Below are positions 21 through 31,695 of a DNA stretch of 64,000 nt, piece by piece; positions within the stretch are counted from its first letter, which is position 1, and each line of letters begins with the position of its first letter. Where the stretch lies: IMG/VR virus record IMGVR_UViG_3300030109_003951, positions 1 to 64,000 of that record; one strand, 5' to 3'. The notes under the pieces were generated by a model that made no database searches, was not told the DNA's origin, and saw nothing but the letters and a program-made list of their open reading frames with translations. A program made the translations under genes and the position numbers. Source of the DNA: a virus.

Positions 21-317
21 ATGGCGTGGGAAGATATATTGAAAGATGATGTTGATACATTCAATAAGTTGCTTAAAGATATTAAAGAAACTCAGAAAAA
101 ATTAAAGGATGTTCATAGAGTTATAAGTAGATTGATTTACGATGATATAATGGAATATTCACAAGTTTATGGTGGGTTTTTACCTAAATCTTTGGTGGGC
201 GAGGCTATGAGTATTGTAGACGAATATGAAATGACTGATGATAAACTTGAAAAACTTATGAAGAAAGTTGCCGAGATGATGGCGATATATGCAAAAAAAG
301 ACAATCCAATGTTATAG
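21..317 (+). CDS. Hypothetical helical protein with W-x-x-I-L-K leader
   Basis: Begins MAWEDILK; AGGTGA SD 4 nt upstream. Confidence 0.75.
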   Translation: MAWEDILKDDVDTFNKLLKDIKETQKKLKDVHRVISRLIYDDIMEYSQVYGGFLPKSLVGEAMSIVDEYEMTDDKLEKLMKKVAEMMAIYAKKDNPML

Positions 318-326
318 GTGATTAAC

Positions 327-647
327 ATGACGTGGGAAGATATAATCAAACAAGATGATTTAGGAATTCTTAAAGTTGGAGATTATATTGAAGAATTTTC
401 ACCGAATCGCCGTAGAGATGGTGTTGTTATCAGCATTAGCATAGCAATGGAAGAAAATGATGCTGCTGGTGAATATTCTTCTGCGGTAGATGTTAAAAAA
501 TATGATACTAGTTTAAAATATCAAGGTTCTGTAGTTTTCGGGCCAAGTTGGAGAGGTGGTAATTATTGGACTTATTTAGAGCGTATAACTAAAATAGTTC
601 CACAAGGCACTCCCGAATTTAAAAAATTAACAGAAGGAAGTGAATAA
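327..647 (+). CDS. Hypothetical protein with leader (MTWEDIIK)
   Basis: ORF track starts at 318; ATG at 327 follows GGTGA SD. Confidence 0.75.
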   Translation: MTWEDIIKQDDLGILKVGDYIEEFSPNRRRDGVVISISIAMEENDAAGEYSSAVDVKKYDTSLKYQGSVVFGPSWRGGNYWTYLERITKIVPQGTPEFKKLTEGSE

Positions 648-648
648 T

Positions 649-942
649 ATGAGTTGGCAAGATATATTAAAACAAGATGTTATAAGTCAATTAGAAGAAC
701 TTAAAGACTTTGCAAATTTTAAGGGCAGATTTGAAGGTAAGTTACGTGCTGATGCACACCCGCAAGAAATTGCTGGCAAACTTAACGATAATTTTATCCA
801 ATTAAAAGGTAAAATAGATGATAAACTTTTTAGAGATTTACAAAAACAAATTCGTAATATTTCGAATAAATCTAATGATTTGGGTGTTGCCTTTGGCGTG
901 TTTGCTGATATTATAGATGATTATTTAGAGAAAAGTAGGTGA
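649..942 (+). CDS. Hypothetical protein with leader (MSWQDILK)
   Basis: ORF 640..942; ATG at 649 starts the leader. Confidence 0.75.
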   Translation: MSWQDILKQDVISQLEELKDFANFKGRFEGKLRADAHPQEIAGKLNDNFIQLKGKIDDKLFRDLQKQIRNISNKSNDLGVAFGVFADIIDDYLEKSR

Positions 943-947
943 ATAAT

Positions 948-2331: not shown

Positions 2332-2526
2332 ATGACAACAGAAAAGTGGTTCCAACAACTCAAAGCAACAGGGTCAGTTACCTCAAGCAGTGCTGCTGGT
2401 GGAGGCCCATCAAACTCAGCAACTACAGAAGGGATTTCTTTTATTGATTCACAAGGAAATCCTAGTCTAAGATTTGGCAAAAAGAAAAGGAGGAAAAAAC
2501 ATGGTAAAAACAAAGAAAGATGCTAA
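2332..2526 (+). CDS. Small Gly/Ser-rich protein with basic tail and variant leader (EKWFQQLK)
   Basis: ORF with AGGTGA SD. Confidence 0.6.
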   Translation: MTTEKWFQQLKATGSVTSSSAAGGGPSNSATTEGISFIDSQGNPSLRFGKKKRRKKHGKNKERC

Positions 2527-3589
2527 TGATGCCTTCAATAAATATGTAAGAGAACTTAAAGCGGCTGATAGTGCTACTATAGGTATGGCAAAAGGAAATC
2601 TTTATAGATTTTTAAGTGGACATGGCACTGCGAGTAGACCTGCTGCTAGAGGAGGCAAAAGAAAAGCCTCTGGGCTTTATAGGTTTTTTACTCAAATGCA
2701 AAATATTTTCAAAGGGGAAGCAGATTTAACTAATCAACAATTAAAATTAATTAGAGAAACGATTAGAAAATTAAAAGGTGTTGGGGATAATAGTATTAAT
2801 AATCCAAGAAATATACCTTTTACTTATCCTACTGGAGAAGATGGTAGTGGTCGAGCCATACAATATGGCCACCCTAATAGTAAAGAATATGTTCAAGGAA
2901 TGAAGAATAAAAAGAAGGCAAGGGGAGAAACTTATGAAGTTCAATCATACATGAATAACATTCCTGATGCTTGGACTAGTCAAACTTTAGGGACTGCTAG
3001 AAATCCTTTGTGGCAAGCATTTTTTGTTGGTGAGAATGAGTCTTTCAAGGGTAAAATCATTTCTATTGGTTTACTTCCGTTGTTAGAAAAAATAGAAAAA
3101 GGTTTGGCTGGAGAAAGTGTGGCGTTAACTATTCCTGCTAGAACATTACAAAAAGATTCTACGCTTGAGCAATTAGTAGATATTAAAGATGTTAGAAAGA
3201 GATTAAACGAAATCATGAGAACTAACAACCTATGGTCTAAAACTAAATCTACAGATAAAGAAGATAAGGAAATAAATGTTGTTAGAATCAAATTTACAGA
3301 CATGAATCGTAGACTAACAGGTTTACCATACAAAGTTACTCCAGAAGAACTCAACACTGTCAAAACATTATCGGGTAATAAAGATGCAGCAGGAGGGGTT
3401 AGTGAATTCAATTTACTTTCAATGACTGCTAATCAAATAGAGAAATTATTGCTTGCTGCTTTTGGAGCAGATGCAAAAGTTGGTGGGGTTCCAGTTCAAT
3501 GGTTTAACTTGTGGAAGACATCCCCAAGGATGGCAGAAACTAGAGATTTGCAAAAAATGCATTGGCGAGATTATTTACAGGTGAGGTGA
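2501..3589 (+). CDS. Basic hypothetical protein; ends in leader-like helix (KMHWRDYLQVR)
   Basis: ORF 2474..3589; likely ATG at 2501 after AGGAGG. Confidence 0.75.
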   Translation: MVKTKKDANDAFNKYVRELKAADSATIGMAKGNLYRFLSGHGTASRPAARGGKRKASGLYRFFTQMQNIFKGEADLTNQQLKLIRETIRKLKGVGDNSINNPRNIPFTYPTGEDGSGRAIQYGHPNSKEYVQGMKNKKKARGETYEVQSYMNNIPDAWTSQTLGTARNPLWQAFFVGENESFKGKIISIGLLPLLEKIEKGLAGESVALTIPARTLQKDSTLEQLVDIKDVRKRLNEIMRTNNLWSKTKSTDKEDKEINVVRIKFTDMNRRLTGLPYKVTPEELNTVKTLSGNKDAAGGVSEFNLLSMTANQIEKLLLAAFGADAKVGGVPVQWFNLWKTSPRMAETRDLQKMHWRDYLQVR

Positions 3590-3593
3590 TACC

Positions 3594-3980
3594 ATCGGTT
3601 GGGAAATAATCTTAAAACAATTGGCTTGTCCTACTGCCACAAAGGATTTAAAACTCAACACTAAAAATAGAGATAGTGCAATCAAAGCCAAACACATTCA
3701 ATATGGCCCCCTTAACTTAGAAGATGAAGATTATTGGGTTAGGGCAGCAGACCATTGGAACACATCAGTTGAAGTTGCTAAAAAATCAAAATGCTCTAAT
3801 TGTATTGCTTTTGATATTAGTGATAGAATGATGGATTGTATGCCTCTTGAGGGAGACTTAGGTTATTGCTGGATGCACCATTTCAAATGTCACAAAGACA
3901 GAACTTGTTACACTTGGGCTGCTGGAGGCCCGATAGATGATGATAAAACATCAAAAGAAAATCAAATGAAGGGGGAGTAA
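3594..3980 (+). CDS. Cys-rich viral protein; probable ATC start giving leader (I/M)GWEIILK
   Basis: ORF track starts at TTG 3621. The in-frame extension to ATC 3594 lies 4 nt after GAGGTGA and encodes the leader. CxNC, GYCW, FKC and RTC motifs. Confidence 0.7.
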   Translation: MGWEIILKQLACPTATKDLKLNTKNRDSAIKAKHIQYGPLNLEDEDYWVRAADHWNTSVEVAKKSKCSNCIAFDISDRMMDCMPLEGDLGYCWMHHFKCHKDRTCYTWAAGGPIDDDKTSKENQMKGE

Positions 3981-3981
3981 T

Positions 3982-4365
3982 ATGTGGCAAGAAATCCTCA
4001 AGAAGAAAAAAGATGCCTGTTATCATAAGGTAAGAAGTCGTTACAAGAAATGGCCTTCTGCTTATGCTAGTGGCGCATTAGTTCAATGTCGAAAAGTTGG
4101 TGCGGCTAATTGGGGAGAATCTGAAAAGAAATCTGAAATTGAAAAGGGTAAAATAAAAGATACTCTTTATAGATGGTTTAAAAGGAGAGGCGGTAAAGAA
4201 ACTAAAGATGGTAAAACACAATCTGGATGGATTGCTTGTGGAACATGTGATGATAAAAACGGCCCTAAACCATGTGGAAGAGAAGATGCTGATAAAGGAA
4301 GAAAAAGAAGATGTAGGCCAACTTGTGCAGCATGTAAAACTTACAAAAGGAGGAGAGGCACATGA
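3982..4365 (+). CDS. Highly basic Cys-containing two-domain protein with leader (MWQEILK)
   Basis: DACYHKV...WPSAYASGALVQCRK; second domain RWFK...CGTC...PCGR...CRPTCAAC. Confidence 0.75.
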   Translation: MWQEILKKKKDACYHKVRSRYKKWPSAYASGALVQCRKVGAANWGESEKKSEIEKGKIKDTLYRWFKRRGGKETKDGKTQSGWIACGTCDDKNGPKPCGREDADKGRKRRCRPTCAACKTYKRRRGT

Positions 4366-4715
4366 GTTGGTTTGATGTTCTGAAAAAAAAGAAAGAAAGC
4401 CCAAGGCAGAAGGCTACAGAAAGAGCAAAAAAGAAAGGACTCAAAGGGGTAAATAAACCACAGGGATTAAAAAAAGACCCAGAAAAATCTCATCATGTTA
4501 TGGCTTTTGAAAATAATAAAGCAAAATATATGAAATTTGGCCAAAAAGGAGTAAAAACTAACCAAACTGCTGGACAAAGAGAGGCTTTCAAGGCTCGACA
4601 TGCTAAGAATATCAAGCGTGGAAAGATGTCTCGTGCTTATTGGGCGGATAAAGTAAAATGGAGTCCAAGTAAAACTAAAGAAAAGAAAAATAAAAATTGG
4701 AGAAAGGGTTCATAA
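4362..4715 (+). CDS. Highly basic protein with leader (MSWFDVLK), probably nucleic-acid binding
   Basis: KFGQKG...AFKARH...AYWA..VKW; very Lys/Arg-rich. Confidence 0.75.
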   Translation: MSWFDVLKKKKESPRQKATERAKKKGLKGVNKPQGLKKDPEKSHHVMAFENNKAKYMKFGQKGVKTNQTAGQREAFKARHAKNIKRGKMSRAYWADKVKWSPSKTKEKKNKNWRKGS

Positions 4716-5101
4716 TGTGGTTTGATTTGTTAAAAAGCATTAGTTATTCTGCTATTGTTCTTGATGACCCGTCCAAAAAAAAATTATTACCACTTGTTCC
4801 AAAGGGTTGGAAACCATACGCTCACCACATGACTATTAAACTCGGCCCATTAAAAGAAGATTCACAGTATAAAGTTGGTGATAAAGTATCAATGAATATT
4901 ACTGATGTTGGTATGGATGATAGAGCAATGGCTGTTAAAGTAGATGCTAAAAGAGATGACAGTAGAGGATTCCCTCATGTTACTGTTGCAACTAGTCCCG
5001 ATGGTGGAAAACCATTTCATTCTAATCAAATACCAGAAGAAAATTTTAAACCTTTTAGTGGCACCTTAACTGGGGTAGTAGAAGAAGTCCCCAACAGGTG
5101 A
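4715..5101 (+). CDS. 2H phosphoesterase (2',3'-cyclic phosphodiesterase-like) with leader (MWFDLLK)
   Basis: Two HxT motifs (HHMTI, PHVTV); ATG at 4715 overlaps the upstream TAA. Confidence 0.8.
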   Translation: MWFDLLKSISYSAIVLDDPSKKKLLPLVPKGWKPYAHHMTIKLGPLKEDSQYKVGDKVSMNITDVGMDDRAMAVKVDAKRDDSRGFPHVTVATSPDGGKPFHSNQIPEENFKPFSGTLTGVVEEVPNR

Positions 5102-5105
5102 TATT

Positions 5106-5609
5106 ATGAGTTGGATGGACATTCTTAAAGCAATTAACAAAATTGTTATTATTGATTTTGACCAAACACTATTTTATACTCCTACTCCAGAAGAAGGTAA
5201 AAAAAAATATCAAGAAGTTACTGGTGAGGAATATCCCCACATTGGTTGGTGGAGTAAACCAGAAAGTTTAGATACAGATATTTTTGATATTCCAGTCAAT
5301 AAAGAAATACTTAGCAAGTATAGAGAGTGTGAAAGTGATTCCACTTGCATGACCGTTTTGTGTACGGGTAGAGTTCCAAAAGTAGAAAAGGAAGTTAAGG
5401 CTTTATTTAAAGAACATGGCATTAATTTTGACAGAGAATATTTTGCTAAACTGCAAACCTTGAGACATAAATTAAAAACTTTTGAAGATTTATACCGAGA
5501 ATATCCAAACGCACAAATTACTGCTTATGATGATAGAGATGACCATTTACCCGAATTCCAAAAGTGGGCGGAAGATAAAGACAATGTAGACATTGTGCAT
5601 GTGAAGTGA
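5106..5609 (+). CDS. HAD-superfamily phosphatase (RNA-repair/PNKP-like) with leader (MSWMDILK)
   Basis: Motif I DFDQTLF, motif II CTGR, motif III K, motif IV YDDRDDH. Confidence 0.85.
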   Translation: MSWMDILKAINKIVIIDFDQTLFYTPTPEEGKKKYQEVTGEEYPHIGWWSKPESLDTDIFDIPVNKEILSKYRECESDSTCMTVLCTGRVPKVEKEVKALFKEHGINFDREYFAKLQTLRHKLKTFEDLYREYPNAQITAYDDRDDHLPEFQKWAEDKDNVDIVHVK

Positions 5610-5613
5610 TATT

Positions 5614-6855
5614 ATGAGTTGGATGGATATTCTCAAAGTTTCGTTAGATATTCTCACTGATGAGTTGCGTAGAGACATCAAATCAAAAGGTGGTAAAATT
5701 TACCAGATTGGTGGTGCAGTTCGAGATGAGTTTTTAGGTAAAGTGTCTAAAGATTTAGATTTGATAATTGCAGGAATAGACATTGACGATTTGCAAAAAA
5801 TTCTAAATCAACATGGTAAGGTAAATTTAGTCGGTAAAAGTTTTGGTGTGTTGAAGTTTAATCCTTTTGGTCAAGAAGGAGAACCAGTAGATATTGTTGT
5901 TCCTAGAATAGAAGTTAGCACAGGAGAAGGTCACAAAGATTTCGAGGTCAGATTAGGTAAAGACATCACGTTAGAAGAAGAACAGTTGCGTAGAGATTTT
6001 TGGATGAATGCAATCGCCAAAGATATTGAAACTGGAGAAATTATCGACATTGGTGGAAAAGGCCAACTCGATATAAAAAATAAACAGATTTCTGTAATCA
6101 ATCCAAAAGCATTTGAGGATGACCCGTTAAGAATGTTAAGAGCAGTACAATTCGCATCTAGATTTAATTTTAAAATAGAAAACGAAACCATGAAAGAAAT
6201 AAAGAAAAACGCTGCAAAAATTAAGACGGTTTCCAATGACAGGTATCAAGAAGAGTTTAGAAAAATGTTCGAGAAGTCTAGTAAGCCAACTGTAGGTGTT
6301 AAACTTTTGATAGAAACAGGGTTAATGAATCATATATTTAGTAAAGGGGAAGTTAATCCTTTGATGGATAAATTAAGTAAAGATGCCTTTCCAACTTTTT
6401 TAGCATTATTTGGTGAAGGGTCAAGTGGCTCAGAAATACAAAGTGTAATGAAGTTGTCTAACAAAGATGCCAACATCGTTCAAGCAGTTATGGATTTCCA
6501 AAAAATAAATTTAGATGATTTAAATGTGGTTAAATTTTTATCTAAAGTCAAGGATAAGAAAGATGTTATTCGCAATATTGATGCTTTGCAAAAAGCCAAA
6601 GGACAAACAACATTAAGTGAGCAATTAAAATCAATGAAAGGAAAACCAACAAGTCTCAAAGAATTAGCAGTTACAGGTAAGGATTTGTTAGATGAGGGAA
6701 TCAGTGGAAGAAAAATTGGTGAGATTTTGAATTATTTGTTAGAATTAGCAGTCAAAACTGGTAAAAATGATAAAGAGTTTTTACTTAGCAGGGCTAAGTC
6801 GGAGTTCAATGAAGAACTATGGAAAAGCATATTAAGGAGAAATACTCGTTGGTGA
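5614..6855 (+). CDS. cca: Class II (bacterial-type) tRNA nucleotidyltransferase / CCA-adding enzyme without HD domain, with leader (MSWMDILK)
   Basis: GGAVRD..DLD, RRDF..NA, EDDPLRMLRAVQFASRF, RxE flexible loop, C-terminal GKDL...GRKIG. Confidence 0.88.
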   Translation: MSWMDILKVSLDILTDELRRDIKSKGGKIYQIGGAVRDEFLGKVSKDLDLIIAGIDIDDLQKILNQHGKVNLVGKSFGVLKFNPFGQEGEPVDIVVPRIEVSTGEGHKDFEVRLGKDITLEEEQLRRDFWMNAIAKDIETGEIIDIGGKGQLDIKNKQISVINPKAFEDDPLRMLRAVQFASRFNFKIENETMKEIKKNAAKIKTVSNDRYQEEFRKMFEKSSKPTVGVKLLIETGLMNHIFSKGEVNPLMDKLSKDAFPTFLALFGEGSSGSEIQSVMKLSNKDANIVQAVMDFQKINLDDLNVVKFLSKVKDKKDVIRNIDALQKAKGQTTLSEQLKSMKGKPTSLKELAVTGKDLLDEGISGRKIGEILNYLLELAVKTGKNDKEFLLSRAKSEFNEELWKSILRRNTRW

Positions 6856-6860: not shown

Positions 6861-7517
6861 ATGGTAACTAGAAGAAGATGTAAAGTCTGTCAACATGAAG
6901 ACAGGACACAAATAGAAGAGATGGTCAATTCAATGACTAAAACTTGTGATGATTTAGATATAGAATTCGATTGGGCAAGTGGTACAACAGCCCGTCACAT
7001 GAGAAACCATACTCAAGGATATGATGATGCCTCTAATCCTCAATGTGCTGTTTGTACTCATCCAGAAAGGGCTAAAATAGAAACAGACATCACAGAAGGT
7101 ACGATTCCTGCTAGTGAAGTAGCAGCACAATTGGGAACAACAGATGCTCAAATTAGAAAACATATGAGGTCACATTTACAACCTCTTGTGCAAAAATCTG
7201 CTGCAACTCAAATTGCTCGTAGAGAAATTGATGAGATAGATATGCTTAGTGCAAACTTACAAAGATTAGATGGTAAATTAGATGAGTTATTTGACATGCC
7301 TACTCACACTACGAGAGAATTAGATTCACTGACTAAACTCGCAAAAGAGATTCGTGAGTCTTTGAAATACCTTATGGAGTTCAAGGGCAAACTTATTCAC
7401 CGAAGGCAGGACACCATCATCGTAGCGCAGATGCAGATTGTCCAAGAAGTGTTGGCGCAAAATCATCCTCAAGTGTGGTTAGACGTTAAAGAAAAGATGA
7501 AGGAGAAGTTACAGTGA
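6861..7517 (+). CDS. Tandem CxxC...HxxxH zinc-finger/HTH protein with coiled coil; candidate terminase small subunit
   Basis: CKVCQH...HMRNH and CAVCTH...HMRSH; lies upstream of TerL; function inferred from position. Confidence 0.5.
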   Translation: MVTRRRCKVCQHEDRTQIEEMVNSMTKTCDDLDIEFDWASGTTARHMRNHTQGYDDASNPQCAVCTHPERAKIETDITEGTIPASEVAAQLGTTDAQIRKHMRSHLQPLVQKSAATQIARREIDEIDMLSANLQRLDGKLDELFDMPTHTTRELDSLTKLAKEIRESLKYLMEFKGKLIHRRQDTIIVAQMQIVQEVLAQNHPQVWLDVKEKMKEKLQ

Positions 7518-7741
7518 GTTGGAGAAGTCTGCTAAAGATTGCTATGGAAGGTTCTAGAAAAACCTTCGATAATTACGAAAGGGCTAAACGCCTTGCTCGT
7601 ACATGGTCTTTTGCAGAACCTCACGTTATCAGAGAAAAAAATGGTAAATTTACAGTCATGATGAAAAAAGACACTAAAGGTTTTCCAGAAGCAGATTTTG
7701 GCCCAGTTGTTCATGAACAAAAAGCGAGGTTTTCAAGATGA
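7514..7741 (+). CDS. Small protein with leader (MSWRSLLK, GTG start)
   Basis: ORF overlaps both neighbours. Confidence 0.65.
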   Translation: MSWRSLLKIAMEGSRKTFDNYERAKRLARTWSFAEPHVIREKNGKFTVMMKKDTKGFPEADFGPVVHEQKARFSR

Positions 7742-8946
7742 CATGGCAAGATATTCTCCTCAAACAAACTAAGTTTGAAGACGACATAGATGATTGGACA
7801 GAGGTTTTTGAATCTCAAAAAAATCTAACACAATTCAAGGAGAGTATCAATTCACTAGATGAAAGAACAATTGCTTCTGTTAAGAATACACTTAGGAACA
7901 AAGAATACGGCCAAAATATAGTAAATAATGCTGACCTAGATAATAAAAAAATTTTTGACCAACCAATACCAGAAAGACTATCTCAACAAAAAAGACTATC
8001 TAAACTAGTTCAAAGAGAACTAAATGAAATCAATGAACTCATACTTGATGCTGGTGGTTTAGATATTGATGATTTAATTGAAAGGATAGTTCCAAGATTA
8101 AAAGTTAGCGAGCCAGACTTTTTAAGTATAGAAAAAGAAATTAATAATTATTTGAAAGGTGGCACCAGAGTCACCCAAATAAGAGATAGGTTGTTCCCAA
8201 AACTTAGAGGTAAAGTTCAACAAATCAGTTCTAAGATAGAATCTTTCGCAGAACCAAATACTATCAAAAGACTTGCTACAATTTTTAAGATTACAAAGGG
8301 CAACCATATAATTAAAAGACCAGAATTAGAAAAGAAATTAGAATCTTTTTATGAAACAATAATACAAAAAGGCGACCCTAGAAAAATCCAAAAGTCATTA
8401 AAAGCAAAAACAGGAAATATTTACGACCATTTATATTTACCAAATAAATCACTTACACTAGAGTTTTCTAAAGCCCTAAAAAAAGAAAAGCCAACATTAG
8501 AAGGTTTTGAAGAATTCATGTATGTTAAAGTCCCTGCTAAATCTGTAAATGAAAACTTCTTTACAGATAAAATAAAAGATAAAAATGATTTGTATATTCC
8601 TTTTGAAGATGCACAAGAATTTTTAGATGATGAGGCACCAAATGGATTAGGTGGAGTTGTAGACAATATCGGTTCTGGGCAAAGAATAGTAGTTAATGGT
8701 AAGTCTATACTCACAGGTAATAAATTACCATTAGAGAAAAATAAAGTGCTGGACGATTTCAACAAAAAAGATAAAGACTTAAGTGAGAGTTTGAGATATT
8801 GGGCTTTTAGTAAAACATCTAAAGTTAAAGATTGGGAACAATTAGCATTTGACATTTTAAGTGAGTTCTTAAAAGACTTAAGAAAAAATAAAAATCTTTT
8901 AGGTGAACTCATAAAAATGGGAATAGTAGAGGAGGTTGAGTCATGA
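7738..8946 (+). CDS. Hypothetical helical protein with leader (MTWQDILLK)
   Basis: 402-aa ORF. Confidence 0.75.
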   Translation: MTWQDILLKQTKFEDDIDDWTEVFESQKNLTQFKESINSLDERTIASVKNTLRNKEYGQNIVNNADLDNKKIFDQPIPERLSQQKRLSKLVQRELNEINELILDAGGLDIDDLIERIVPRLKVSEPDFLSIEKEINNYLKGGTRVTQIRDRLFPKLRGKVQQISSKIESFAEPNTIKRLATIFKITKGNHIIKRPELEKKLESFYETIIQKGDPRKIQKSLKAKTGNIYDHLYLPNKSLTLEFSKALKKEKPTLEGFEEFMYVKVPAKSVNENFFTDKIKDKNDLYIPFEDAQEFLDDEAPNGLGGVVDNIGSGQRIVVNGKSILTGNKLPLEKNKVLDDFNKKDKDLSESLRYWAFSKTSKVKDWEQLAFDILSEFLKDLRKNKNLLGELIKMGIVEEVES

Positions 8947-10871
8947 TTAAACAAGAAATAATTACAGATGCTTTAACTAAAATAACTAATCAGAAAAAAA
9001 CAATTAAAGAAGTTGTTCCTAATCCAACTTTAGACGGTAAGAAAAATATAACTGTTGCATTAAGAAAGCAGTTAAAAAAAATAATTACTGATGCTCTATC
9101 AAAAGCCCTTGTTAATTATTCCGATTCAAATACATTAAAATGGACAAAAGAATGGAATCCCCACTCTACAAAAAAAGGTTTGACATCAGACGATATAGAA
9201 TCTGTTGAAGTAGAAATCAAAGGAGTTCCAAACATTACAGTTGGAAACTTAATTCATGCAAACGATAACATTCAAAACAAATTAGAAAAATTCATTGCTG
9301 AGTTTGAAAAGCCAACAGAAGAAACAAAGAAAACAATAGCCAAAGATTCTTTCCCAGAAAAAGTTGGTGTTTTAAAATGGCGTTCTGCAAATTCTAGAAA
9401 GAAAGTTTATGATTATTGGGAAGGCATATCCAAAATGTTTGACGATTTAGAATCCCAAACAAGAAAATGGGCAGAAACATTAACTGATAAAAATAAAGGT
9501 AATGTTGTTGATAGTTTAGAAAACTTAGAAAACTATGTCATAAAAATAAATGATGTTCAACAAATACCAGTTGGGACACACTTAGATATTTTTGCAGATA
9601 TGTTAGAGGAAATAAAAGCCTCTCTTTTATCAGATGATGGAGTTGTAAAGTTCACTGAAAATAAAATATTAGCAGCAAAAACAGGAGATGCAGCAGACGA
9701 CATGGATGATGTTGACCCTCTTTTAGCAGTGTCCATTTCAAAAGGTTTGACTAAGTTAGGATATAGTAAAGAGACTCTATTAAGAGAAAAAGAAAACTTG
9801 TTAGAGCAAAGCAAAAAACTAGATGAAAAGCCAAGAACAATGTTTGAAAAAATGTTAGATAGTCTAATTGATGAAGCAGAGGCAATAGATGCGCCTTTCT
9901 ATCTACCCGATACAGAGTTTACCTCAACTGATGAGCAAGCAAGACAAAGGAGAGAAGACAATCACAAAAAATATCTTGAAATGATTGCGCTCGCAGCAGA
10001 CGAAAAAGAAATCGACCCTGTGCTACTAACCACACTCAAAAAATATTATGGCCCTATATCAAAAACTAATATGAATCTAATGGGAAGTCCCCCTAAGTTT
10101 ATGGAGTCCTCTACTTGGGATAACATCATGTCTTTAGATAGTGAGTCCACTTTAGATTATGATGATACTTTAGTTTCTGCAAAACAAATGGAGGCTTTAG
10201 CAGAATTCATAGGTAAATATCGTAAAGGTGCATTGGAAGTGTATGATGATAACACTAAAGATTTAGCCTTCAAAGTTTTTGGAGTTTTAGATGAATTATT
10301 TAAAGGTGAACATCGCAAAGCAAATCAAGAAACTCTTGGTTGGTTCTTAAATAAAAACAACCCTCCTGCTGGAGAAAGATTCATGGGTGAATCCATCGAA
10401 GAACTTGCTGATAGATACGATGAACAAAAAGAATCATCTTATCCATTATTAGATATGGAAGGTTTAATCAATAGTCCTAAATTTATTAGTTTATTTGAAC
10501 CAACAGACCCAGATGCAAAATTAGAAAATGTAAAACCTACAGTAAAGAAAAAATTATTTGAGCAAGTTAAAAAATTAAACAACAATTACAAAAAATTAGC
10601 AAAGAAGAAAAAAGACATTAATTCACAAATTTTAGAAACTCACGATGTTATTAGGAAATCTTTTGGTAAACCAATTTATTATGGTATGAATGATTTGACA
10701 GACATAGAAGATACCAGTTATGTTTTGAAAAGATTATCCTCAAAAGGGTATGATTTGACTGCTGTAGAATTAACTGCTATAGTTGATTCGATAAGTTCTC
10801 TTGACAGAATTGCTAAGTCTTTTGGAGTAAATGAAGAAATAGTATATCTGGCAAAGGGGCTATGTAGATGA
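8943..10871 (+). CDS. Large hypothetical helical protein, possible C-terminal HTH
   Basis: 642-aa ORF coupled to TerL. Confidence 0.75.
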   Translation: MIKQEIITDALTKITNQKKTIKEVVPNPTLDGKKNITVALRKQLKKIITDALSKALVNYSDSNTLKWTKEWNPHSTKKGLTSDDIESVEVEIKGVPNITVGNLIHANDNIQNKLEKFIAEFEKPTEETKKTIAKDSFPEKVGVLKWRSANSRKKVYDYWEGISKMFDDLESQTRKWAETLTDKNKGNVVDSLENLENYVIKINDVQQIPVGTHLDIFADMLEEIKASLLSDDGVVKFTENKILAAKTGDAADDMDDVDPLLAVSISKGLTKLGYSKETLLREKENLLEQSKKLDEKPRTMFEKMLDSLIDEAEAIDAPFYLPDTEFTSTDEQARQRREDNHKKYLEMIALAADEKEIDPVLLTTLKKYYGPISKTNMNLMGSPPKFMESSTWDNIMSLDSESTLDYDDTLVSAKQMEALAEFIGKYRKGALEVYDDNTKDLAFKVFGVLDELFKGEHRKANQETLGWFLNKNNPPAGERFMGESIEELADRYDEQKESSYPLLDMEGLINSPKFISLFEPTDPDAKLENVKPTVKKKLFEQVKKLNNNYKKLAKKKKDINSQILETHDVIRKSFGKPIYYGMNDLTDIEDTSYVLKRLSSKGYDLTAVELTAIVDSISSLDRIAKSFGVNEEIVYLAKGLCR

Positions 10872-16476: not shown

Positions 16477-16710
16477 ATGAGTGAAGAAAATGAAGTATTA
16501 GATATTTTAAAACAATTAGTTGATAGAATTAAAACATTAGAAAAACACGTTTACAATGAAGATAACGTGTTAATGAAATCTGGTTGGGTGCAAACAAAGT
16601 CACCTTCACCATCAGTAGATAATGATAGAACAGGAATGCCTAAGAATATTGGGGATAAATCTTGGGGCGAATTACATGATATAATTTCAAAAATGGAGGG
16701 TCGACAATGA
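16477..16710 (+). CDS. Mini scaffold-like protein (coiled coil plus KSWGELH C-terminal helix)
   Basis: C-terminus resembles the protease-scaffold C-terminus KMSWDELHQVI. Confidence 0.6.
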   Translation: MSEENEVLDILKQLVDRIKTLEKHVYNEDNVLMKSGWVQTKSPSPSVDNDRTGMPKNIGDKSWGELHDIISKMEGRQ

Positions 16711-20823: not shown

Positions 20824-20828
20824 TTAAA

Positions 20829-22262
20829 ATGGTAAGAACAATAAACACAATAAGAGATTTAGAAGCGGCTACATACGGCTTCCAAAACAACTCAATTCTA
20901 AAAGGTACTGGAGTAGTTGGTGCAGCAGGAATTGGTGTAACTGGACACGATGCAGCAATAGGAATAAATGGAACAGCAGCCACAGCAATGACTGATTTAT
21001 ACAATGTAGTATATGGTCAAAAAGTTTGGTCAATGTTGAACCAAGAAATAAATCCACTAGCAATTCTTCCAAAAAGACCGTACACAACAAGCGGTTGGAG
21101 AATTCTAAAAGCAAGACCATTTGGTGGAGCAGATGCGAAATTCGGTTTAGCACATGAATTTTCTGACAACTCTACTGGTGATGCTTTAACAGCAGGTAGA
21201 AGTGGAACACAAGTTGACAGGCCAATGCCAGATGAAATTGGTGGTGTTAGAGAAAATGCAGGAATAGGTGGAGCAGCAGCAGACGGTGATATTACACCAG
21301 TTGCACCAGAATACACAAAACTATTCATGACTCCTAAAACAATTGCTCACATGTTTGAATTCAGTGAATTAGCATCTGAAATGGCAAAGATTGATGATGG
21401 TATCGGTGACTTAAGAGCATTGATTCGTGAAGATATGGGTAAATTCCATGCAGAAGTTCAATCAAAAATGTTAGTAATGCCTCTAGAAGCATATGACTTA
21501 GATGCTGGATTAGCAGCAGGTAGTTCCGCTAGTGGTGCTGCTGCATTTGCAGATATGGAAAGAAACTTAACATCATTAATGAAAATTGTTTCTTCCTCAG
21601 CAGAAGTTCATGAAATGGGTGCGCAAAGTATAGTAGCAGCAAATGATGGTGCTAACAGTGTAGACACAGTTAAACTATATGGTAACACAGATAGAGCAGC
21701 AGACACAGCATTAGGTTCCTCAGTAGGATTTATGGATGCAGAAGTTAACATTGGAGATGGATATGCAGCAGCAGAACAAAGAGTATTAACACTTTCAATC
21801 ATGAATAGTTTAATCCAAAGTTTAAGAACAAATGGAGCAAGTCCAAAAGTTATTATGACTGGATATGATACAATTCAAGCAATTGCTGACTTATTACAAA
21901 GCCAAGAAAGATTCATGGATGCTAAACACATTGTACCAACACATAATGGTGTAAAAGGTGTTGCTGGTGCAGAAGTTGGATTCAGAGTTGCAACATACTA
22001 TGACATCCCACTAATTCCAGCAAAAGACATGCCAAGCACATGCCACTTATCATTATCAACAGGATTAAGTGATATGTTATTCTTAGACACTGACCACTTA
22101 TGGTACTCCGTACTAAAACCAACTCAATACTTTGAAGATGGTATTAATCATGGAAACCCATTCGGCATTGGTAAACTAGGGAATCAAGGAATGTACCGAA
22201 CTATTGGTGAAGTAGGCTGTTCTTTCTTCAAAGGACAAGGTAAAATCACCAACCTAAAGTAA
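20829..22262 (+). CDS. Major capsid protein (HK97 fold inferred)
   Basis: Follows protease-scaffold; about 477 aa; VYGQKVWSMLNQE and YYDIPLIP..D..FLDT segments typical of archaeal tailed-virus capsids; ATG 20829 after AGGTGA. Confidence 0.85.
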   Translation: MVRTINTIRDLEAATYGFQNNSILKGTGVVGAAGIGVTGHDAAIGINGTAATAMTDLYNVVYGQKVWSMLNQEINPLAILPKRPYTTSGWRILKARPFGGADAKFGLAHEFSDNSTGDALTAGRSGTQVDRPMPDEIGGVRENAGIGGAAADGDITPVAPEYTKLFMTPKTIAHMFEFSELASEMAKIDDGIGDLRALIREDMGKFHAEVQSKMLVMPLEAYDLDAGLAAGSSASGAAAFADMERNLTSLMKIVSSSAEVHEMGAQSIVAANDGANSVDTVKLYGNTDRAADTALGSSVGFMDAEVNIGDGYAAAEQRVLTLSIMNSLIQSLRTNGASPKVIMTGYDTIQAIADLLQSQERFMDAKHIVPTHNGVKGVAGAEVGFRVATYYDIPLIPAKDMPSTCHLSLSTGLSDMLFLDTDHLWYSVLKPTQYFEDGINHGNPFGIGKLGNQGMYRTIGEVGCSFFKGQGKITNLK

Positions 22263-22974: not shown

Positions 22975-23268
22975 TTGTCTTGGGAAGATATACTCAAAGT
23001 AAGAGTTCCAGTAGGCAGAGCGCAAGGCTCTGATGAACGACCAGATATTACAATGGATGTATCTGAAAAAGTATTAGCGGGTGCTGATATTTTATATGCT
23101 GTTGAGAAAGCAAACTTGAGAGATAAAACTGGTAAAGGTATAGGAGAAACACTTTTAGAAATGTTAGATTTTACATCTAAAGAAATGACTTTAGCCAATG
23201 CATTATATCGTGATAAATCAGTACCAAGTCTTTATATTGACTATAAATTTCAAGAAATGTATGAATGA
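22975..23268 (+). CDS. Small protein with leader (MSWEDILK, TTG start)
   Basis: ORF and leader. Confidence 0.7.
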   Translation: MSWEDILKVRVPVGRAQGSDERPDITMDVSEKVLAGADILYAVEKANLRDKTGKGIGETLLEMLDFTSKEMTLANALYRDKSVPSLYIDYKFQEMYE

Positions 23269-28426: not shown

Positions 28427-28427
28427 T

Positions 28428-28991
28428 ATGGATGAAGTGACTTATGTAGTTGAGTTGTTAAAAGGCACTAATATTGCCACTAGTCAATATGGTGGGACTA
28501 ATACATGGGCAGGTTCAATTTCTTCATTGTCTATACCTGCGGCACATCAAGTAACTCCAACAATCATAGACATTCGCAACATGACAAAAAATAAAGGTAG
28601 GGCTTACGATTTATCTACTGCGGCTTCTGGAGAATCTTCTTCTGACCTTATAGTAGTTTTTGAGGATTCTCAAACAATAACACATCCTACAGTAGCCTAT
28701 GATGTTAGGAATGAAACCTACACATTAACATTACATATTCGCACAATACAAGACGATAGGGGGGCAAGTGATGCAAATTTCGCTAGAGATAGATTAGAAA
28801 ATTTGTATAAAATTGTCCGTCATAGACTTGAAGCGAACCGTAAAGGAGCAAAGGTGACAGTTAGTGGTGACTCTAATTCTTTCGACCTTATATATTTAAG
28901 GGGTAGAACGGAGTCGAATGACCGAGCCAAAAGGCTGTTTGGGTACAAAGTTCAGATAGAATTACAAAAGTATGCAGTGGCCTTACCGTAA
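28428..28991 (+). CDS. Putative tail terminator/completion protein
   Basis: Position before the tail tube; size and beta-strand pattern. Confidence 0.55.
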   Translation: MDEVTYVVELLKGTNIATSQYGGTNTWAGSISSLSIPAAHQVTPTIIDIRNMTKNKGRAYDLSTAASGESSSDLIVVFEDSQTITHPTVAYDVRNETYTLTLHIRTIQDDRGASDANFARDRLENLYKIVRHRLEANRKGAKVTVSGDSNSFDLIYLRGRTESNDRAKRLFGYKVQIELQKYAVALP

Positions 28992-29013
28992 GTAAGTAAG
29001 TAGGTGAAAAGAA

Positions 29014-30771
29014 ATGGTAACGAATAGTGAAGTATGGATGGGGTCTGGTGCATCAGTAACATTAGTCCCAGAGAGTGATTTATTTTTAGGATTTAAAGAT
29101 GGTGCATTTAGCAGTTCAACCACGTCCACAGATAAAACTAGAGGACAATATGAAATTGATTTAGCCAACCTTAAATCTCAATTTAATAACAGTGGAGATG
29201 CATTTACTGATAAATATTTGTTAACAGATAGTGTCTATAGCGGTTGTATTGCTGATTTTATTAAAGATGATGGAACTCTCGTACACAGTAGAGTTATTTC
29301 TGGTAACAGTTATAATAAACTTTATTTCAATGAAGAATACCATAGTGGAACTGGTGATAATACTTATATCATTATAAGAAAGTTTGGTGCGCCAGTTTTC
29401 GGCCCTAAAACAAATGATGCTGGTGGTCAAGCCCAACCTACATTGCTCGCAGATAATTGGTTAGGAATAGTAAACACTATTACTTTCCCTAATCCATCAG
29501 TAGAAGTATTACAAAAGAATCTTGCTCTTGGAGGAAGTAGAAATTTTACTCTTCAATTCAAGGGATTGGAAAATGCCGAAGGTGGAACTTTTGAAGTTAG
29601 TGCTAATCAAGGAACATGGTTGTATTATGCGTTAGGTAAATGTACTAATATAAATGCTACATTTACAGATGTTGATAATTATACTGATATGTTCACTACC
29701 ACAACTACCACTGGATTTTACTTAGATGATGGTTCTACTGGAAATAATTCTGGGATGTTAGAACAAGGCCCATTCTTTTACCGAAGCGTTGTTAATGTTT
29801 CATGTCCACCACCAATACCTTCTGATTTAGGGATAACTGCGGAAGCACATGTAGCAAGTGCAACCGCAACTTTAGAAAAGTTAACACATTCAACTGTTGG
29901 GGCAGATGGTGAAATAGATGATGCAATCACCTATACTTTTGGAGAAGCCAATGGTAGCGATTTACCTTCCTTCACATTAGAACATGTAATCAACAAAGGT
30001 TCACCTACACAATCAATGTTATCAGACGGTACAAATAAAAATTATTCTACTACTGCCAATGATGGAGAATCAAAAACATTAACAGTGAGTGATGAAGTTT
30101 TTACAAGAATAGCAACAGGTAATACAGTCAACACTTTAACTTTAATGGCTAATGAAGGTGAAGAACTTAAAATGAGCATGGATTTAATGACAAAGCAAAT
30201 TATAAAACCACAAGGTAATGATACATCTTCTGTCGCTGCGGCTTATTTGGCAAGAAGAGGAGTAACAGATGATAGAAGTTTAATCAACTTCGGTTCTGGT
30301 GCTGGAGGGGCAAATGCTAGTGTAGAAGAGTTCCTAAAACCATTCTTTTTCCATGATGGTAGTTTAAGTATATTTGGCCAACAATTTTTGAAAATATCAA
30401 ACTTTACATTAACAATAAATAATAACTTACAGGAAAAAAGATTTGTTGGTAATTACAAGAAAGGCTCAAAATCAATTTTACCAGCACAAAGAATGTATGA
30501 GATTACATTAAGTGGTTTAGTTACAGATTCATTATTGTTTGACCAATTATTGAATGATGCAGAAAATCCAAGTACAAGCGCACAAATGATTGAGTTAACA
30601 TTTACTAAAGAAAATGGTGAAAACATTACATTGAAATTTACAGATTATTTTGTTAGTGTGGCTAACTTCCCAATACCAGAAGATAACAGTCCTTTCATTG
30701 TAGATGCTACAATTATGCCAAGAACTTTGAATACATGTACAGTGAAAACACACTGGGTATTACAAGGGTGA
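29014..30771 (+). CDS. Major tail tube protein with insertions
   Basis: WLYYALG, YTF.E...LPSFTLE, FTLTINNNL, R.YEITLSG motifs of siphoviral tail tube proteins. Confidence 0.75.
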   Translation: MVTNSEVWMGSGASVTLVPESDLFLGFKDGAFSSSTTSTDKTRGQYEIDLANLKSQFNNSGDAFTDKYLLTDSVYSGCIADFIKDDGTLVHSRVISGNSYNKLYFNEEYHSGTGDNTYIIIRKFGAPVFGPKTNDAGGQAQPTLLADNWLGIVNTITFPNPSVEVLQKNLALGGSRNFTLQFKGLENAEGGTFEVSANQGTWLYYALGKCTNINATFTDVDNYTDMFTTTTTTGFYLDDGSTGNNSGMLEQGPFFYRSVVNVSCPPPIPSDLGITAEAHVASATATLEKLTHSTVGADGEIDDAITYTFGEANGSDLPSFTLEHVINKGSPTQSMLSDGTNKNYSTTANDGESKTLTVSDEVFTRIATGNTVNTLTLMANEGEELKMSMDLMTKQIIKPQGNDTSSVAAAYLARRGVTDDRSLINFGSGAGGANASVEEFLKPFFFHDGSLSIFGQQFLKISNFTLTINNNLQEKRFVGNYKKGSKSILPAQRMYEITLSGLVTDSLLFDQLLNDAENPSTSAQMIELTFTKENGENITLKFTDYFVSVANFPIPEDNSPFIVDATIMPRTLNTCTVKTHWVLQG

Positions 30772-30776
30772 TTTAG

Positions 30777-30917
30777 ATGGAAAAAACAATTAATTTAAAA
30801 TCTCATCGTAGAGAAGCAATTCCTAAATTAAGAGCATTAGAGGTTAAGAAAAACCCTCCTAAGCCAAAGAAACAACGCAAACCTAGAAAGAAAAAAGTGG
30901 TAGAGGAAGATGAGTGA
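30777..30917 (+). CDS. Small basic peptide (46 aa, not in ORF track)
   Basis: GGGTGA SD, MEKTINLKSH...KKVVEEDE. Confidence 0.5.
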   Translation: MEKTINLKSHRREAIPKLRALEVKKNPPKPKKQRKPRKKKVVEEDE

Positions 30918-31695
30918 ATGGCAATCTGTGTTGAAATCTACTTCTATTGAAAAACAAACTTCTAATGAAGTAATGGATAAATTCGTAGAAAATTTAGGAA
31001 AAGTTATAGCAGATTACCAAAAAGAACAACAAACCAATCAATCCACAACAGCAACACAACCAACTCAACCAACTCAAGCACCCTCGGTTGCGGGTAGAGC
31101 AGATACTATAACTGTTGGAGGAAATAAACCAGCAAGTGGTTATAAAACTTATACTTCTGAAGAAATCCAAGCATTAAGAGGAGCAGGAGTTAGCACTAGC
31201 GAAATAAAACGATTAGATACTGCTAGAGCAAAAAATATGCAAAAACCACCATCATTAGCCGCACCAGCAGCAGGAGTGGCACCAACAAGCGTTGCGGGTA
31301 ATATAGCACCACAAAAACCACTTTCAGCAAGAACAACACCTCCAACATATACTGCTTCGCAAGCAAATATAGATAGAGCGATGCGCAGATTACCACCTTG
31401 GGCAGAGAAACTTAGAGAACGTCAAGCAACTGCTCAAGTGACTCAACAAGAAGGTCAACCTGCTACTTCTCAAGTGAGGCGGGACTCTTATGATAGAGGA
31501 GAAGACGACTCTAGAACAAGAGGACTTGGGCCAGCAAAGCCAGTTGGTGGTCAAGGTAGAGTTAAACGTACTCCAACACAAAAAGATAAAACTATGGCTC
31601 AACAAGGATTATCTCTAGCCCAGCAACGTGAGTTAGAAGTTGATACACTTCTAGGAGAAACACTACAGGATAGGAGAGAAAGACAACGAAAATAA
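30910..31695 (+). CDS. Q/T/P/A-rich disordered protein with leader (MSEWQSVLK)
   Basis: ORF inserted between the tail tube and chaperone genes. Confidence 0.7.
   Translation: MSEWQSVLKSTSIEKQTSNEVMDKFVENLGKVIADYQKEQQTNQSTTATQPTQPTQAPSVAGRADTITVGGNKPASGYKTYTSEEIQALRGAGVSTSEIKRLDTARAKNMQKPPSLAAPAAGVAPTSVAGNIAPQKPLSARTTPPTYTASQANIDRAMRRLPPWAEKLRERQATAQVTQQEGQPATSQVRRDSYDRGEDDSRTRGLGPAKPVGGQGRVKRTPTQKDKTMAQQGLSLAQQRELEVDTLLGETLQDRRERQRK

Follow-up and report, generated by a model that had tools for sequence, protein, structure and literature searches.

A shared N-terminal peptide on unrelated magrovirus proteins resembles the scaffold tail and may address cargo to the capsid

Results

A short peptide heads 19 genes of the morphogenesis strand

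The window analyzed here is a stretch of 64,000 nucleotides, positions 1 to 64,000 of IMG/VR record IMGVR_UViG_3300030109_003951. Its MCP is nearest to those of haloarchaeal tailed viruses, and the replication arm carries split PolB, RFC, XPF and ATP-dependent ligase; magroviruses, the tailed viruses of marine group II archaea, have been described with such replication genes. The MCP kinship and the replication-arm gene set together support the assignment of this ocean virus to an archaeal host, as a preliminary description of the sequence had assumed. We searched the window and the whole 86.6-kb record with a six-frame regex scan and found 19 plus-strand ORFs with the N-terminal pattern W-x-x-[ILVM]-[ILVM]-(x)-K, their W codons lying at 27, 333, 655, 954, 1616, 1867, 3600, 3985, 4368, 4718, 5112, 5620, 7520, 7744, 15232, 15833, 16192, 22981 and 30919. 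Across the record, a single match fell inside a real gene (the MCP, at 22101), and none in the replication arm (minus strand, 47-86.6 kb). The tagged ORFs, with one doubtful member, are:

21-317, plus strand: MAWEDILK, 98 aa, acidic (motif scan; weak Pfam MCM_WH_arc match)
327-647, plus: MTWEDIIK, 106 aa (motif scan)
649-942, plus: MSWQDILK, 97 aa (motif scan)
948-1613, plus: MTWKDILK, 221 aa, basic (3/3 homologues in relatives tagged)
1610-1864, plus: MTWKQVLQK, 84 aa, basic (one extra residue before K)
1861-2331, plus: MSWQDILK, 156 aa (motif scan)
2332-2526, plus: weak variant MTTEKWFQQLK, 64 aa (doubtful member)
3594-3980, plus: W-E-I-I-L-K, 128 aa, Cys-rich body (no canonical start codon)
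3982-4365, plus: MWQEILK, 127 aa, basic, 8 Cys (weak DUF5872 match)
4362-4715, plus: MSWFDVLK, 117 aa, pI 10.7 (motif scan)
4715-5101, plus: MWFDLLK, 2H/cyclic phosphodiesterase-like enzyme (Pfam tRNA_lig_CPD, 1.1e-8)
5106-5609, plus: MSWMDILK, HAD phosphatase, RNA-repair type (Pfam HAD_SAK_1, 2.4e-12)
5614-6855, plus: MSWMDILK, class II CCA-adding/poly(A) polymerase-type nucleotidyltransferase (Pfam PolyA_pol and two partner domains)
7514-7741, plus: MSWRSLLK, 75 aa, basic, GTG start (motif scan)
7738-8946, plus: MTWQDILLK, 402 aa, one extra residue before Lys (motif scan)
15226-15621, plus: MSWRNILK, 131 aa, pI 4.2, directly after the portal gene (motif scan)
15827-16189, plus: MNWQLILK, 120 aa, GTG start, between portal and protease (motif scan)
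16186-16470, plus: MTWEEIVK, 94 aa (motif scan)
22975-23268, plus: MSWEDILK, 97 aa, TTG start (motif scan)
30910-31695, plus: MSEWQSVLK, 261 aa, basic, low-complexity, in the tail module (motif scan)

The N-terminal tag reported in the preliminary description is therefore real, and 19 of its roughly 20 members hold; the remaining one, at 2332, is only a weak variant, whose ORF overlaps another (2474-3589) in a different frame at an A-rich run. The octapeptide is shared as described, except that the members at 1610 and 7738 have an extra residue before the Lys, and the ORFs at 7514, 15827 and 22975 have GTG or TTG as start codon. At 3594 the tag is present but no ATG, GTG or TTG lies ahead of it: the sequence reads ACC ATC GGT TGG where the closest relative has ATG AGT TGG, and 13 of 14 homologues in relatives begin M-[SN]-W-E-I-I-L-K. 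The consensus is M-[STN]-W-x-[DE]-[IV]-L-K, with an invariant Trp, an N-cap pattern ([STND] before the W, [DE] three residues on) and, best kept after the Trp, the Lys (377/416); at the position following the Lys we found no conserved residue. The bodies downstream are unrelated, as had been claimed, since all-against-all BLASTP of the 19 gave no pair with E below 0.1. In the nucleotidyltransferase at 5614, likeness to solved CCA enzymes begins at residue 14-21, past the tag, and in several tagged enzymes the tag stands just 3-6 residues from the first core strand.

The tagged genes all belong to the morphogenesis strand, where some precede terL, some separate portal from protease and others follow the MCP (the one at 22975 stands directly 3' of the MCP and the head-completion genes); this strand and operon position suggest that their proteins are late. 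The gene at 15827 represents the most widely conserved tagged family (72 homologues), whose seemingly untagged members bear degenerate tags such as MEWENTLK.

The tag marks a clade and is selected as a peptide

Among relatives, the tag marks the whole low-GC magrovirus clade, with 515 tagged ORFs in about 205 families at 81 loci. Tagged proteins have a median length of 99 aa, range from very acidic to very basic in pI, and contain a membrane-like segment in only 4 of the 205 families (2%); homologues of tagged genes remain tagged and core genes remain untagged. The proposed restriction to the virion-gene strand was borne out in four complete genomes, where 59 of 262 genes are tagged on the terminase strand and 1 of 212 on the opposite one (Fisher p = 1e-15). 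A strict tag DNA pattern gave 4-9 matches per genome on the terminase strand and none on the opposite strand, and its reversed-pattern control gave none. One exact tag codon pattern occurs in more than 120 IMG/VR stretches. Of these, 118 are new loci, with 552 tags in total, and proteins in common with this genome occur in 98 of them. Generic hydrophobic-hydrophobic-Lys N-termini showed no enrichment among untagged head-strand genes (p = 0.39).

Synonymous codon variation, likewise claimed earlier, is extensive: 354 distinct tag DNAs from relatives use all six Leu codons (10-30% each) and all three Ile codons, with only the usual 5'-end preference for A-ending codons. The use of all six Leu codons indicates selection at the peptide level, and the sequence data support an amphipathic, portable N-terminal label carried by unrelated soluble proteins.

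Both halves of the tag recur in head-assembly proteins

The following features lie in the protease-scaffold and MCP genes:

19576-20823, plus: prohead protease (S78, herpesvirus-protease fold) fused to a helical scaffold domain (Pfam Peptidase_S78, residues 19-177)
19612-19626, plus: F-D-I-L-K, residues 13-17, flexible leader before the first protease core strand (relatives, AF2)
20071-20085, plus: F-D-I-L-K, residues 166-170, last strand of the protease domain (relatives, AF2)
20773-20820, plus: scaffold C-terminal tail M-S-W-D-E-L-H-Q-V-I-D-N-L-E-N-R (tag front-half PSSM match)
20886-20903, plus: N-N-S-I-L-K, MCP residues 23-28, candidate maturation site before G29 (conservation)

The protease domain was predicted by AF2 at pLDDT 90, with EBV, HCMV and KSHV proteases as top Foldseek matches and with H65 and S123 invariant. 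A PSSM of the tag front half, trained without this genome, gave the scaffold tail as the top internal match among its real genes: the first six residues of the tail match M-S-W-x-D-I. A tail of the form M-[SD]-W-x-[DE]-[IL]-[HN] occurs at 89 loci (57 distinct tails) and is predicted to form a helix, residues 402-414 here. The tail has His or Asn at the tag's Leu position and lacks the Lys, so tag and tail are not identical; a Lys precedes the tail in some relatives only, and we found no co-variation of tail and tag at position -1.

D-I-L-K, the back half of the tag, is found again at either end of the protease domain, and an invariant L-L-K near the MCP N-terminus resembles it. The N-terminal copy lies within residues 1-22, which AF2 predicts with low confidence and no regular structure, and F-x-I-L-K-S is invariant there in close relatives. 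At the other end, K170 is kept in 119/132 representatives and F166 in 129/141, and AF2 places a strand at 165-170 followed by a dip in confidence. Beyond K170 homology to all relatives ends across 149 representatives, with alignment coverage falling through 132, 102, 85 and 58. This C-terminal motif forms a strand of the fold; a similar strand in a related halovirus does not carry the exact FDILK, and part of the match to the tag may be structural. In the MCP, N-x-[IL]-L-K is near-exceptionless in about 80 relatives within an otherwise variable Gly-rich stretch, and one relative has D-I-L-K at the site. The MCP of HK97, the S78 prototype, is cut at K103/S104, that is, after Lys (PMC10275583). 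The literature we searched held no mention of this tag, and its sequence links to the scaffold tail and to the protease and MCP motifs are new here.

Discussion

A proposed cargo address built like the scaffold tail

Because the tag copies the scaffold tail and ends like likely protease cut sites, it probably loads cargo: we give about one chance in two to its being a cargo address like the T4 capsid-targeting sequence (CTS), a mimic of the scaffold tail joined to a cleavage site. In other tailed phages and in herpesviruses, it is the C-terminal tail that anchors the scaffold to the inner surface of the capsid shell. The front half of the tag would be a free-standing copy of that conserved tail, so a tagged protein would dock at the scaffold's docking place and be enclosed during procapsid assembly, after which the S78 prohead protease would cut behind the tag Lys and release the cargo within the head. 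We infer this course of docking, enclosure, cleavage and later ejection. The preliminary reading, a portable label that would load proteins into the prohead for injection with the DNA, is partly supported: the label itself, its restriction to the morphogenesis strand and the analogy to T4 hold.

The T4 CTS, also named in the preliminary description, is the closest known analogue. Borne by IPI-III and Alt, it has 10 residues, the front part for targeting and the back part for processing; it carries foreign proteins into heads and is removed by the prohead protease gp21, whose own two ends may also be processed (PMC9026906). The tag is likewise a roughly 10-residue N-terminal peptide on unrelated, fast-evolving small proteins, with a proposed targeting front and processed back, a protease with matching sites at its ends, and genes beside head genes. 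T4 keeps prohead-core genes in the portal-to-protease slot. In contrast, the tag has no sequence relation to the CTS; gp21 cuts glutamyl bonds, but Lys is the candidate P1 in the magrovirus, whose protease is of the HK97/S78 family; the CTS binds the gp22 core, whereas the tag copies the scaffold's own tail; and the putative magrovirus system has an archaeal host, with tagged families numbering more than 200 and tagged genes about 20 in each genome.

The herpesvirus protease-scaffold precursor runs from assemblin through a release site, the scaffold and a maturation site to a C-terminal MCP-binding tail, and phage scaffolds such as P22 gp8 have C-terminal coat-binding tails. The product of 19576-20823 similarly combines a herpes-type protease fold, a conserved boundary motif, an acidic linker and a long helical scaffold ending in a short conserved C-terminal helix, although the magrovirus cleavage sites are putative. 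We know of no other system in which a copy of the scaffold tail serves to address other proteins. Encapsulin cargo-loading peptides, short and terminal on diverse enzymes, bind inside a shell of the HK97 fold, a likeness in general features; these peptides are usually C-terminal and uncleaved, in a shell without DNA. In the giant phages SPN3US and phiKZ, the prohead protease removes N-terminal propeptides from ejection or internal proteins (PMC10052503). Many non-structural proteins are thus loaded into heads and processed, as we propose for tagged proteins, but the propeptides are long (20-254 aa) with no single shared short motif. In the related halovirus HCTV-1, the portal-to-protease slot encodes a MuF-like protein together with a giant one bearing a zeta-toxin domain; such MuF-fused or polyvalent cargo proteins hold the slot of the tagged genes, yet HCTV-1 and the tag-less magrovirus lineages use giant multidomain proteins rather than many small tagged ones.

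Alternative roles for the tag

A less likely alternative is that the tag docks its proteins to a different shared partner, for instance a chaperone of virus or host, a host hub protein or a site of assembly. Late accessory proteins would thereby be co-localized or stabilized and not packaged. A hub-binding motif would be consistent with a short amphipathic helix that recurs on many unrelated soluble proteins; CCA-adding, HAD and 2H phosphoesterase enzymes act on cytoplasmic RNA, and we know of none that are packaged. This account leaves unexplained the match of the front half to the scaffold tail, that of the back half to the protease-domain boundaries and MCP site, and the interleaving of tagged genes with head genes.

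It is improbable that the tag is solely a propeptide, removed by the prohead or a host protease to activate or time proteins with no targeting role. The match of D-I-L-K to the protease boundaries and MCP L-L-K and the cleavage at Lys by the HK97 protease would fit, but eight residues are unlikely to inhibit folded enzymes, and the invariant Trp and N-cap pattern are unneeded for a Lys-directed cut yet common to the scaffold tail. Prohead proteases also work within proheads, so substrates must enter beforehand.

We think it very improbable that the Lys is the acceptor for a ubiquitin-like protein of the virus itself, with the tag as modification signal. Its conservation, second only to Trp, would suit this role, and ThiF/E1, encoded in this genome outside the window, occurs in 9/10 tag-bearing long genomes and 0/4 tag-less sister genomes. 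That contrast, however, amounts in essence to a single division between two clades, and tags persist both in a 96%-complete genome that lacks ThiF and in another whose ThiF is interrupted by two in-frame stops. Moreover, the scaffold tail has the motif without the Lys, and no hydrophobic-K-x-E consensus follows the tag Lys.

Equally slight is the chance of an action at the nucleic-acid or translation level (start-region enhancer, nascent-peptide signal or cassette-shuffling recombination linker): some tag DNAs are near-identical (24/24 nt for 649 and 1861, 31/33 nt for 5098-5130 and 5606-5638), SD-like GGTGAT precedes most tags and codon 2 of the tag helix is biased to A-ending codons, but every synonymous codon is used among the 354 tags and the same peptide stands at the scaffold C-terminus, where a start signal is impossible. 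Shuffling of cargo genes through recombination between tags is quite plausible, but as a by-product.

Several observations also count against the cargo address. The tagged gene at 30910 sits in the tail module, and RNA-repair enzymes would be unusual capsid cargo; the short spacing to the first core strand leaves little room for a protease. The unconserved residue after the Lys, the missing co-variation at -1, the lack of enrichment of hydrophobic-hydrophobic-Lys among untagged head-strand genes, the differences between tail and tag and the partly structural origin that the C-terminal FDILK match may have weigh on the same side.

The scaffold tail (M-S-W-D-E-V-H) and the protease end (F-[RS]-I-L-K) are both kept in sister lineages that have no tag, which suggests that the tag was put together from pre-existing elements. 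As a cargo address, it would load a changeable set of small, fast-evolving soluble proteins, here including three RNA-repair-type enzymes and several basic Zn-type proteins, which would leave the capsid with the DNA at the next infection.

A short N-terminal tag on unrelated proteins

The preliminary description proposed that about 20 unrelated late proteins open with one octapeptide, and this observation is confirmed and extended here. A six-frame regular-expression scan for W-x-x-[ILVM]-[ILVM]-(x)-K, applied to the window and then to the whole genome, found 19 plus-strand N-termini carrying the tag, M-[STN]-W-x-[DE]-[IV]-L-K (ORFs are named by start coordinate). Across the whole genome the same pattern had a single internal match in a real gene, that of the major capsid protein (MCP), and none in the minus arm, in line with the proposed restriction to the virion-gene strand. 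The MCP segment, W-[YLM]-[SA]-V-[LM]-K-P (22101-22118), is conserved near the C-terminus and scores highest among internal matches to the whole-tag profile. The ORF list drawn up earlier was right save for details: ORF 2332 has only a weak variant, ORFs 1610 and 7738 are tagged with one additional residue ahead of the Lys, and ORF 3594 has the tag but no canonical start codon. At this last locus (3585-3602) no ATG, GTG or TTG occurs from the upstream stop to the Trp codon (ACC ATC GGT TGG), and the closest relative reads ATG AGT TGG there; the start could be lost, non-canonical or a sequence error. Beyond the Lys, no pair among the 19 proteins is similar (all E > 0.1), so the bodies are as unrelated as first described.

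Selection on the peptide, earlier argued from synonymous codon variation, is borne out by 354 distinct tag DNAs of relatives, in which Leu uses all six codons and Ile all three. Codons for Asp, Asn, Ser and Val at tag position 3 and for Val at position 4 follow the usage of the rest of those genes, and the sole bias is for A-ending codons beside the start, the usual preference. An SD-like GGTGAT precedes most tags. Two pairs in this genome have near-identical tag DNA (649 with 1861, and 5106 with 5614), which fits a side effect of recent cassette duplication or recombination.

Genome organization and viral affiliation

The IMG/VR record measures 86.6 kb with a CheckV completeness of 92%, the window being its first 64 kb. 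Morphogenesis genes occupy the plus strand to about 47 kb, including the tail tube and the rest of the tail genes.

Core head genes of the plus strand
10868-12304, +, terminase large subunit (terL)
13628-15229, +, portal
17076-19538, +, ligase-domain protein of 820 aa, between portal and protease, conserved in 70 relatives
19576-20823, +, S78 prohead protease fused to scaffold
20820-22262, +, MCP

At 12225-13628 an ORF of 467 aa without a Pfam match overlaps terL at the latter's 3' end; it is matched somewhere by all 80 relatives and from its N-terminus by only 20, so the region is structurally variable. The minus arm encodes replication genes: a split PolB, an RFC-like clamp loader, an XPF/ERCC4 nuclease, a PD-(D/E)XK nuclease and an ATP-dependent ligase. 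PolB lies in two minus-strand ORFs separated by a gap of ~440 nt: 55313-56962 encodes the exonuclease and the first part of the polymerase domain, 54051-54875 the remainder of that domain.

Among known MCPs, the closest come from the haloarchaeal siphoviruses HCTV-1, HCTV-5 and HVTV-1. Magroviruses rank among the commonest archaeal viruses of the surface ocean, and to our knowledge none is in culture. In PMC5434244 they are described with genomes near 90-100 kb, a halovirus-like MCP and head module, and a replication module of their own (PolB, clamp loader, ligase). In size, head module and replication module the virus fits that description, and a marine group II archaeal host would be expected.

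Distribution of the tag among relatives

N-terminal tags number 501 at 80 loci whose terminase is 72-99% identical, and nearly all lie on the terminase strand; adding this genome brings the total to 515 tagged ORFs, which fall into about 205 sequence families. Counted over four complete genomes, the terminase strand has 59 tagged genes out of 262 and the other strand 1 out of 212 (p = 1e-15). Tagged genes concentrate in three places: upstream of terL, in the interval from portal to protease, and downstream of MCP. A search of IMG/VR with one exact codon pattern gave > 120 stretches among the matches listed; 118 of the loci so listed were new, with 552 tags between them, and 98 of these have proteins in common with this genome. 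One contig, L199 (IMGVR_UViG_3300021958_000021, 184,733 bases), is twice the usual magrovirus length and has eight tags in 12 kb beside homologues of terL and its neighbours; it may be a concatemer or a larger relative.

Over 416 distinct contexts the consensus reads M-[S>T,N]-W-[E/F/K/Q]-[D>E,N,S]-[I>V]-[L]-K, and nothing past the Lys is conserved. The Trp is preceded by a good helix N-cap residue (S, T, N, D), and three positions after that residue D or E predominates; from sequence alone we read the tag as a capped short amphipathic helix, predicted to present Trp, Ile and Leu on one face. Tagged families have a median length of 99 aa, range from very acidic to very basic, and are soluble by sequence, with only 4 of 205 showing a membrane-like segment; homologues of tagged genes keep the tag or a degenerate form of it (MLWEETLK, for example). 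No tag occurs on the core genes, namely terL, portal, ligase-domain protein, protease, MCP and the Zn/HTH protein at 6819. An untagged 77-aa protein at 16477-16710, kept in 70 relatives, contains the tag-like E-[VM]-L-[DM]-[IL]-L-K at residues 7-13, lacking the Trp.

Searches of the literature with the motif strings returned no relevant context, the tag is absent from all papers searched, and the passages of the magrovirus papers PMC5434244 and PMC11706807 reached by keyword do not mention a shared N-terminus.

The front of the tag recurs at the scaffold tail

A position-specific matrix of the tag front half (M-S-W-x-D-I), trained without this genome, was used to rank 34,536 internal positions. 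Residues 400-405 of the protease-scaffold fusion (K-M-S-W-D-E-L-H) ranked second, the sole better match lying in an antisense non-gene ORF. All 89 relatives with a readable end have this tail, M-[SD]-W-x-[DE]-[IL]-[HN], in 57 distinct versions. In the AF2 model the scaffold part is one long helix (304-388) followed by short helices, the final one (402-414) beginning at the Trp; conservation and prediction thus agree on a short conserved helix at the extreme C-terminus of a helical scaffold. Since scaffold elements sit under the capsomers in P22, T7, HK97 and herpesviruses (partly PMC10275583), the tail is likely, by analogy, a capsid-binding element. Tail and tag showed no co-variation at position -1.

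A candidate cleavage site at the lysine

The protease domain matches Pfam Peptidase_S78 (7.3e-11), and its catalytic H65 and S123 are invariant in 64 sequences. A first AF2 run on a 10-sequence alignment left the protease part unusable (pLDDT < 50); the 64-sequence alignment gave a model with pLDDT 90, which Foldseek matched to the EBV, HCMV and KSHV proteases (E = 3e-5). PDB sequence and profile searches with the protease gave no real match. By family profile and predicted fold we assign the gene to the HK97-family (S78) prohead proteases, with a herpesvirus-protease fold and a fused scaffold, the same layout as the herpesvirus protease-scaffold precursor.

F-D-I-L-K occurs twice in this protein, at residues 13-17 and 166-170, both copies being kept in close relatives. 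Conservation was counted over 149 representatives of 50%-identity clusters: 119 of 132 have K170 and 129 of 141 have F166. Alignments stop just past K170, coverage falling from 132 to 102, 85 and 58; the distant representatives P0012 and P0017 had no match in IMG/VR. In the AF2 model the N-terminal copy is part of a leader that lacks regular structure and comes ahead of the first core strand, and the C-terminal copy forms the last strand before a dip in confidence. Between a conserved segment at the MCP N-terminus and the Gly-rich stretch that opens the shell domain, N-x-[IL]-L-K is almost invariant in about 80 relatives, and the site reads D-I-L-K in one relative. HK97, the S78 prototype, cuts its MCP at K103/S104, that is, after Lys (PMC10275583). 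Because D-I-L-K or L-L-K stands at the ends of the protease domain and in MCP, and HK97 cuts after Lys, we infer cleavage after [IL]-L-K. Untagged head-strand genes show no N-terminal enrichment of a generic hydrophobic-hydrophobic-Lys motif (p = 0.39), on which ground a generic code was dropped beyond the specific sites, and a related halovirus has similar strands that lack the exact motif; for both reasons the site is treated as a candidate.

Tag-less sister lineages

Tags are absent from 80 loci that belong to more distant lineages (protease-scaffold 25-62% identical, GC 0.37-0.57), and the tag DNA pattern has 0 matches in four long tag-less genomes compared with 4-9 in each of five tagged-clade genomes. 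The scaffold tail nevertheless persists in these lineages as M-[SG]-W-D-E-V-H, and the end of the protease as N-P-E-A-x-F-[RS]-I-L-K. As both parts are kept where tags are absent, the tag looks, from these comparisons, like a clade-specific invention that would join the tail front to the cleavage end, overlapping on D-I.

In a tag-less sister lineage (locus L322, 3979-9915) the portal-to-protease slot contains a giant ligase-domain protein of 1979 aa with its ligase core at residues 1536-1651, and the corresponding slot of HCTV-1 contains MuF-like and zeta-toxin-domain giants. The idea that tagged proteins are split-off pieces of the giant was rejected, BLASTP finding no similarity outside the ligase core. 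HCTV-1 has no shared N-terminal tag, and its MCP N-terminus did not align.

Tagged genes include an RNA-repair-type trio

Three tagged genes of RNA-repair type stand adjacent in a row at 4715-6855.

Tagged RNA-repair-type genes
4715-5101, +, 2H/cyclic phosphodiesterase (CPD), RNA-repair type
5106-5609, +, HAD phosphatase (HAD_SAK_1, 'Swiss army knife' RNA-repair type)
5614-6855, +, class II CCA-adding/poly(A) polymerase-type enzyme

The trio is scarce in relatives, with 3, 0 and 1 homologues, respectively, in 80 loci. Similarity of the CCA-type enzyme to solved CCA enzymes begins only at residue 14-21, so the tag is an add-on. The remaining tagged proteins are small and basic (3982 Cys-rich, 4362 Cys-free), small and acidic, or near-neutral and Cys-rich (3594). 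ORF 2332, a 64-aa ORF with the weak tag MTTEKWFQQLK, overlaps in another frame the start of a 371-aa ORF (2474-3589) at an A-rich run, GGCAAAAAGAAAAGGAGGAAAAAAC; the 2332/2474 overlap may be a frameshift or a slippery site. The larger ORF has a tagged 423-aa homologue in one relative.

Interpretation

The tag was first put forward as a cargo loader resembling the capsid targeting sequence (CTS) of T4 internal proteins. As in T4, one short N-terminal peptide stands on unrelated proteins encoded near head genes. The T4 CTS comprises ten residues, with a targeting front and a processing back, and can carry foreign proteins; the T4 protease gp21, which cuts glutamyl bonds, may also be trimmed at each of its own ends (PMC9026906). 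The CTS is the closest analogue, and judged by sequence the present system is not a member of it, because the protease belongs to Peptidase_S78 and not to the gp21 type, the candidate P1 residue is Lys where T4 has a glutamyl bond, and the sequences are unrelated. Ejection proteins of giant phages have long, dissimilar propeptides (PMC10052503), unlike the short shared tag.

Cargo loading is a plausible interpretation that has become mechanistically sharper. The tag front would mimic the scaffold tail and so dock the protein, and the Lys site would permit its release; one magrovirus clade would have assembled the tag from older parts, the tail front and the protease end. At a rough probability of 0.35, this two-part code would load and inject more than 200 interchangeable soluble proteins, including three enzymes that would serve as a tRNA-repair kit and forestall host defences that cut RNA. 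That the tag is instead bound by some other common partner seems unlikely, though it deserves some weight. A pure propeptide would account for the Lys but leaves the Trp and the match to the scaffold tail unexplained. The invariant Lys might also be an acceptor for a ubiquitin-like protein of the virus, a reading considered because the genome carries ThiF/E1 (a ThiF/E1-like gene lies at 67501-67854 of the whole record, outside the window). ThiF/E1 is present in 9 of 10 long tag-bearing genomes and 0 of 4 long tag-less ones, a contrast that is essentially one phylogenetic split; the gene is absent from one 96%-complete tag-bearing genome and has two in-frame TGA stops in another. Strict coupling, 5 of 5 and 0 of 4 at first, was broken by the further sample, and we regard this reading as very improbable. 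A translation or DNA element is excluded as the main function by the codon data and by the C-terminal copy in the scaffold.

If the two-part code is true, about a fifth of head-strand genes would be virion cargo, which would give a function class to hundreds of orphan families and point to the proteins that magroviruses deliver at the onset of infection. Archaeal viruses would gain their first described cargo-addressing system, an address code that arose by copying the capsid-binding tail of the scaffold and joining to it a protease site, and the eight-residue tag would be a useful tool to load foreign proteins into an HK97-fold shell.
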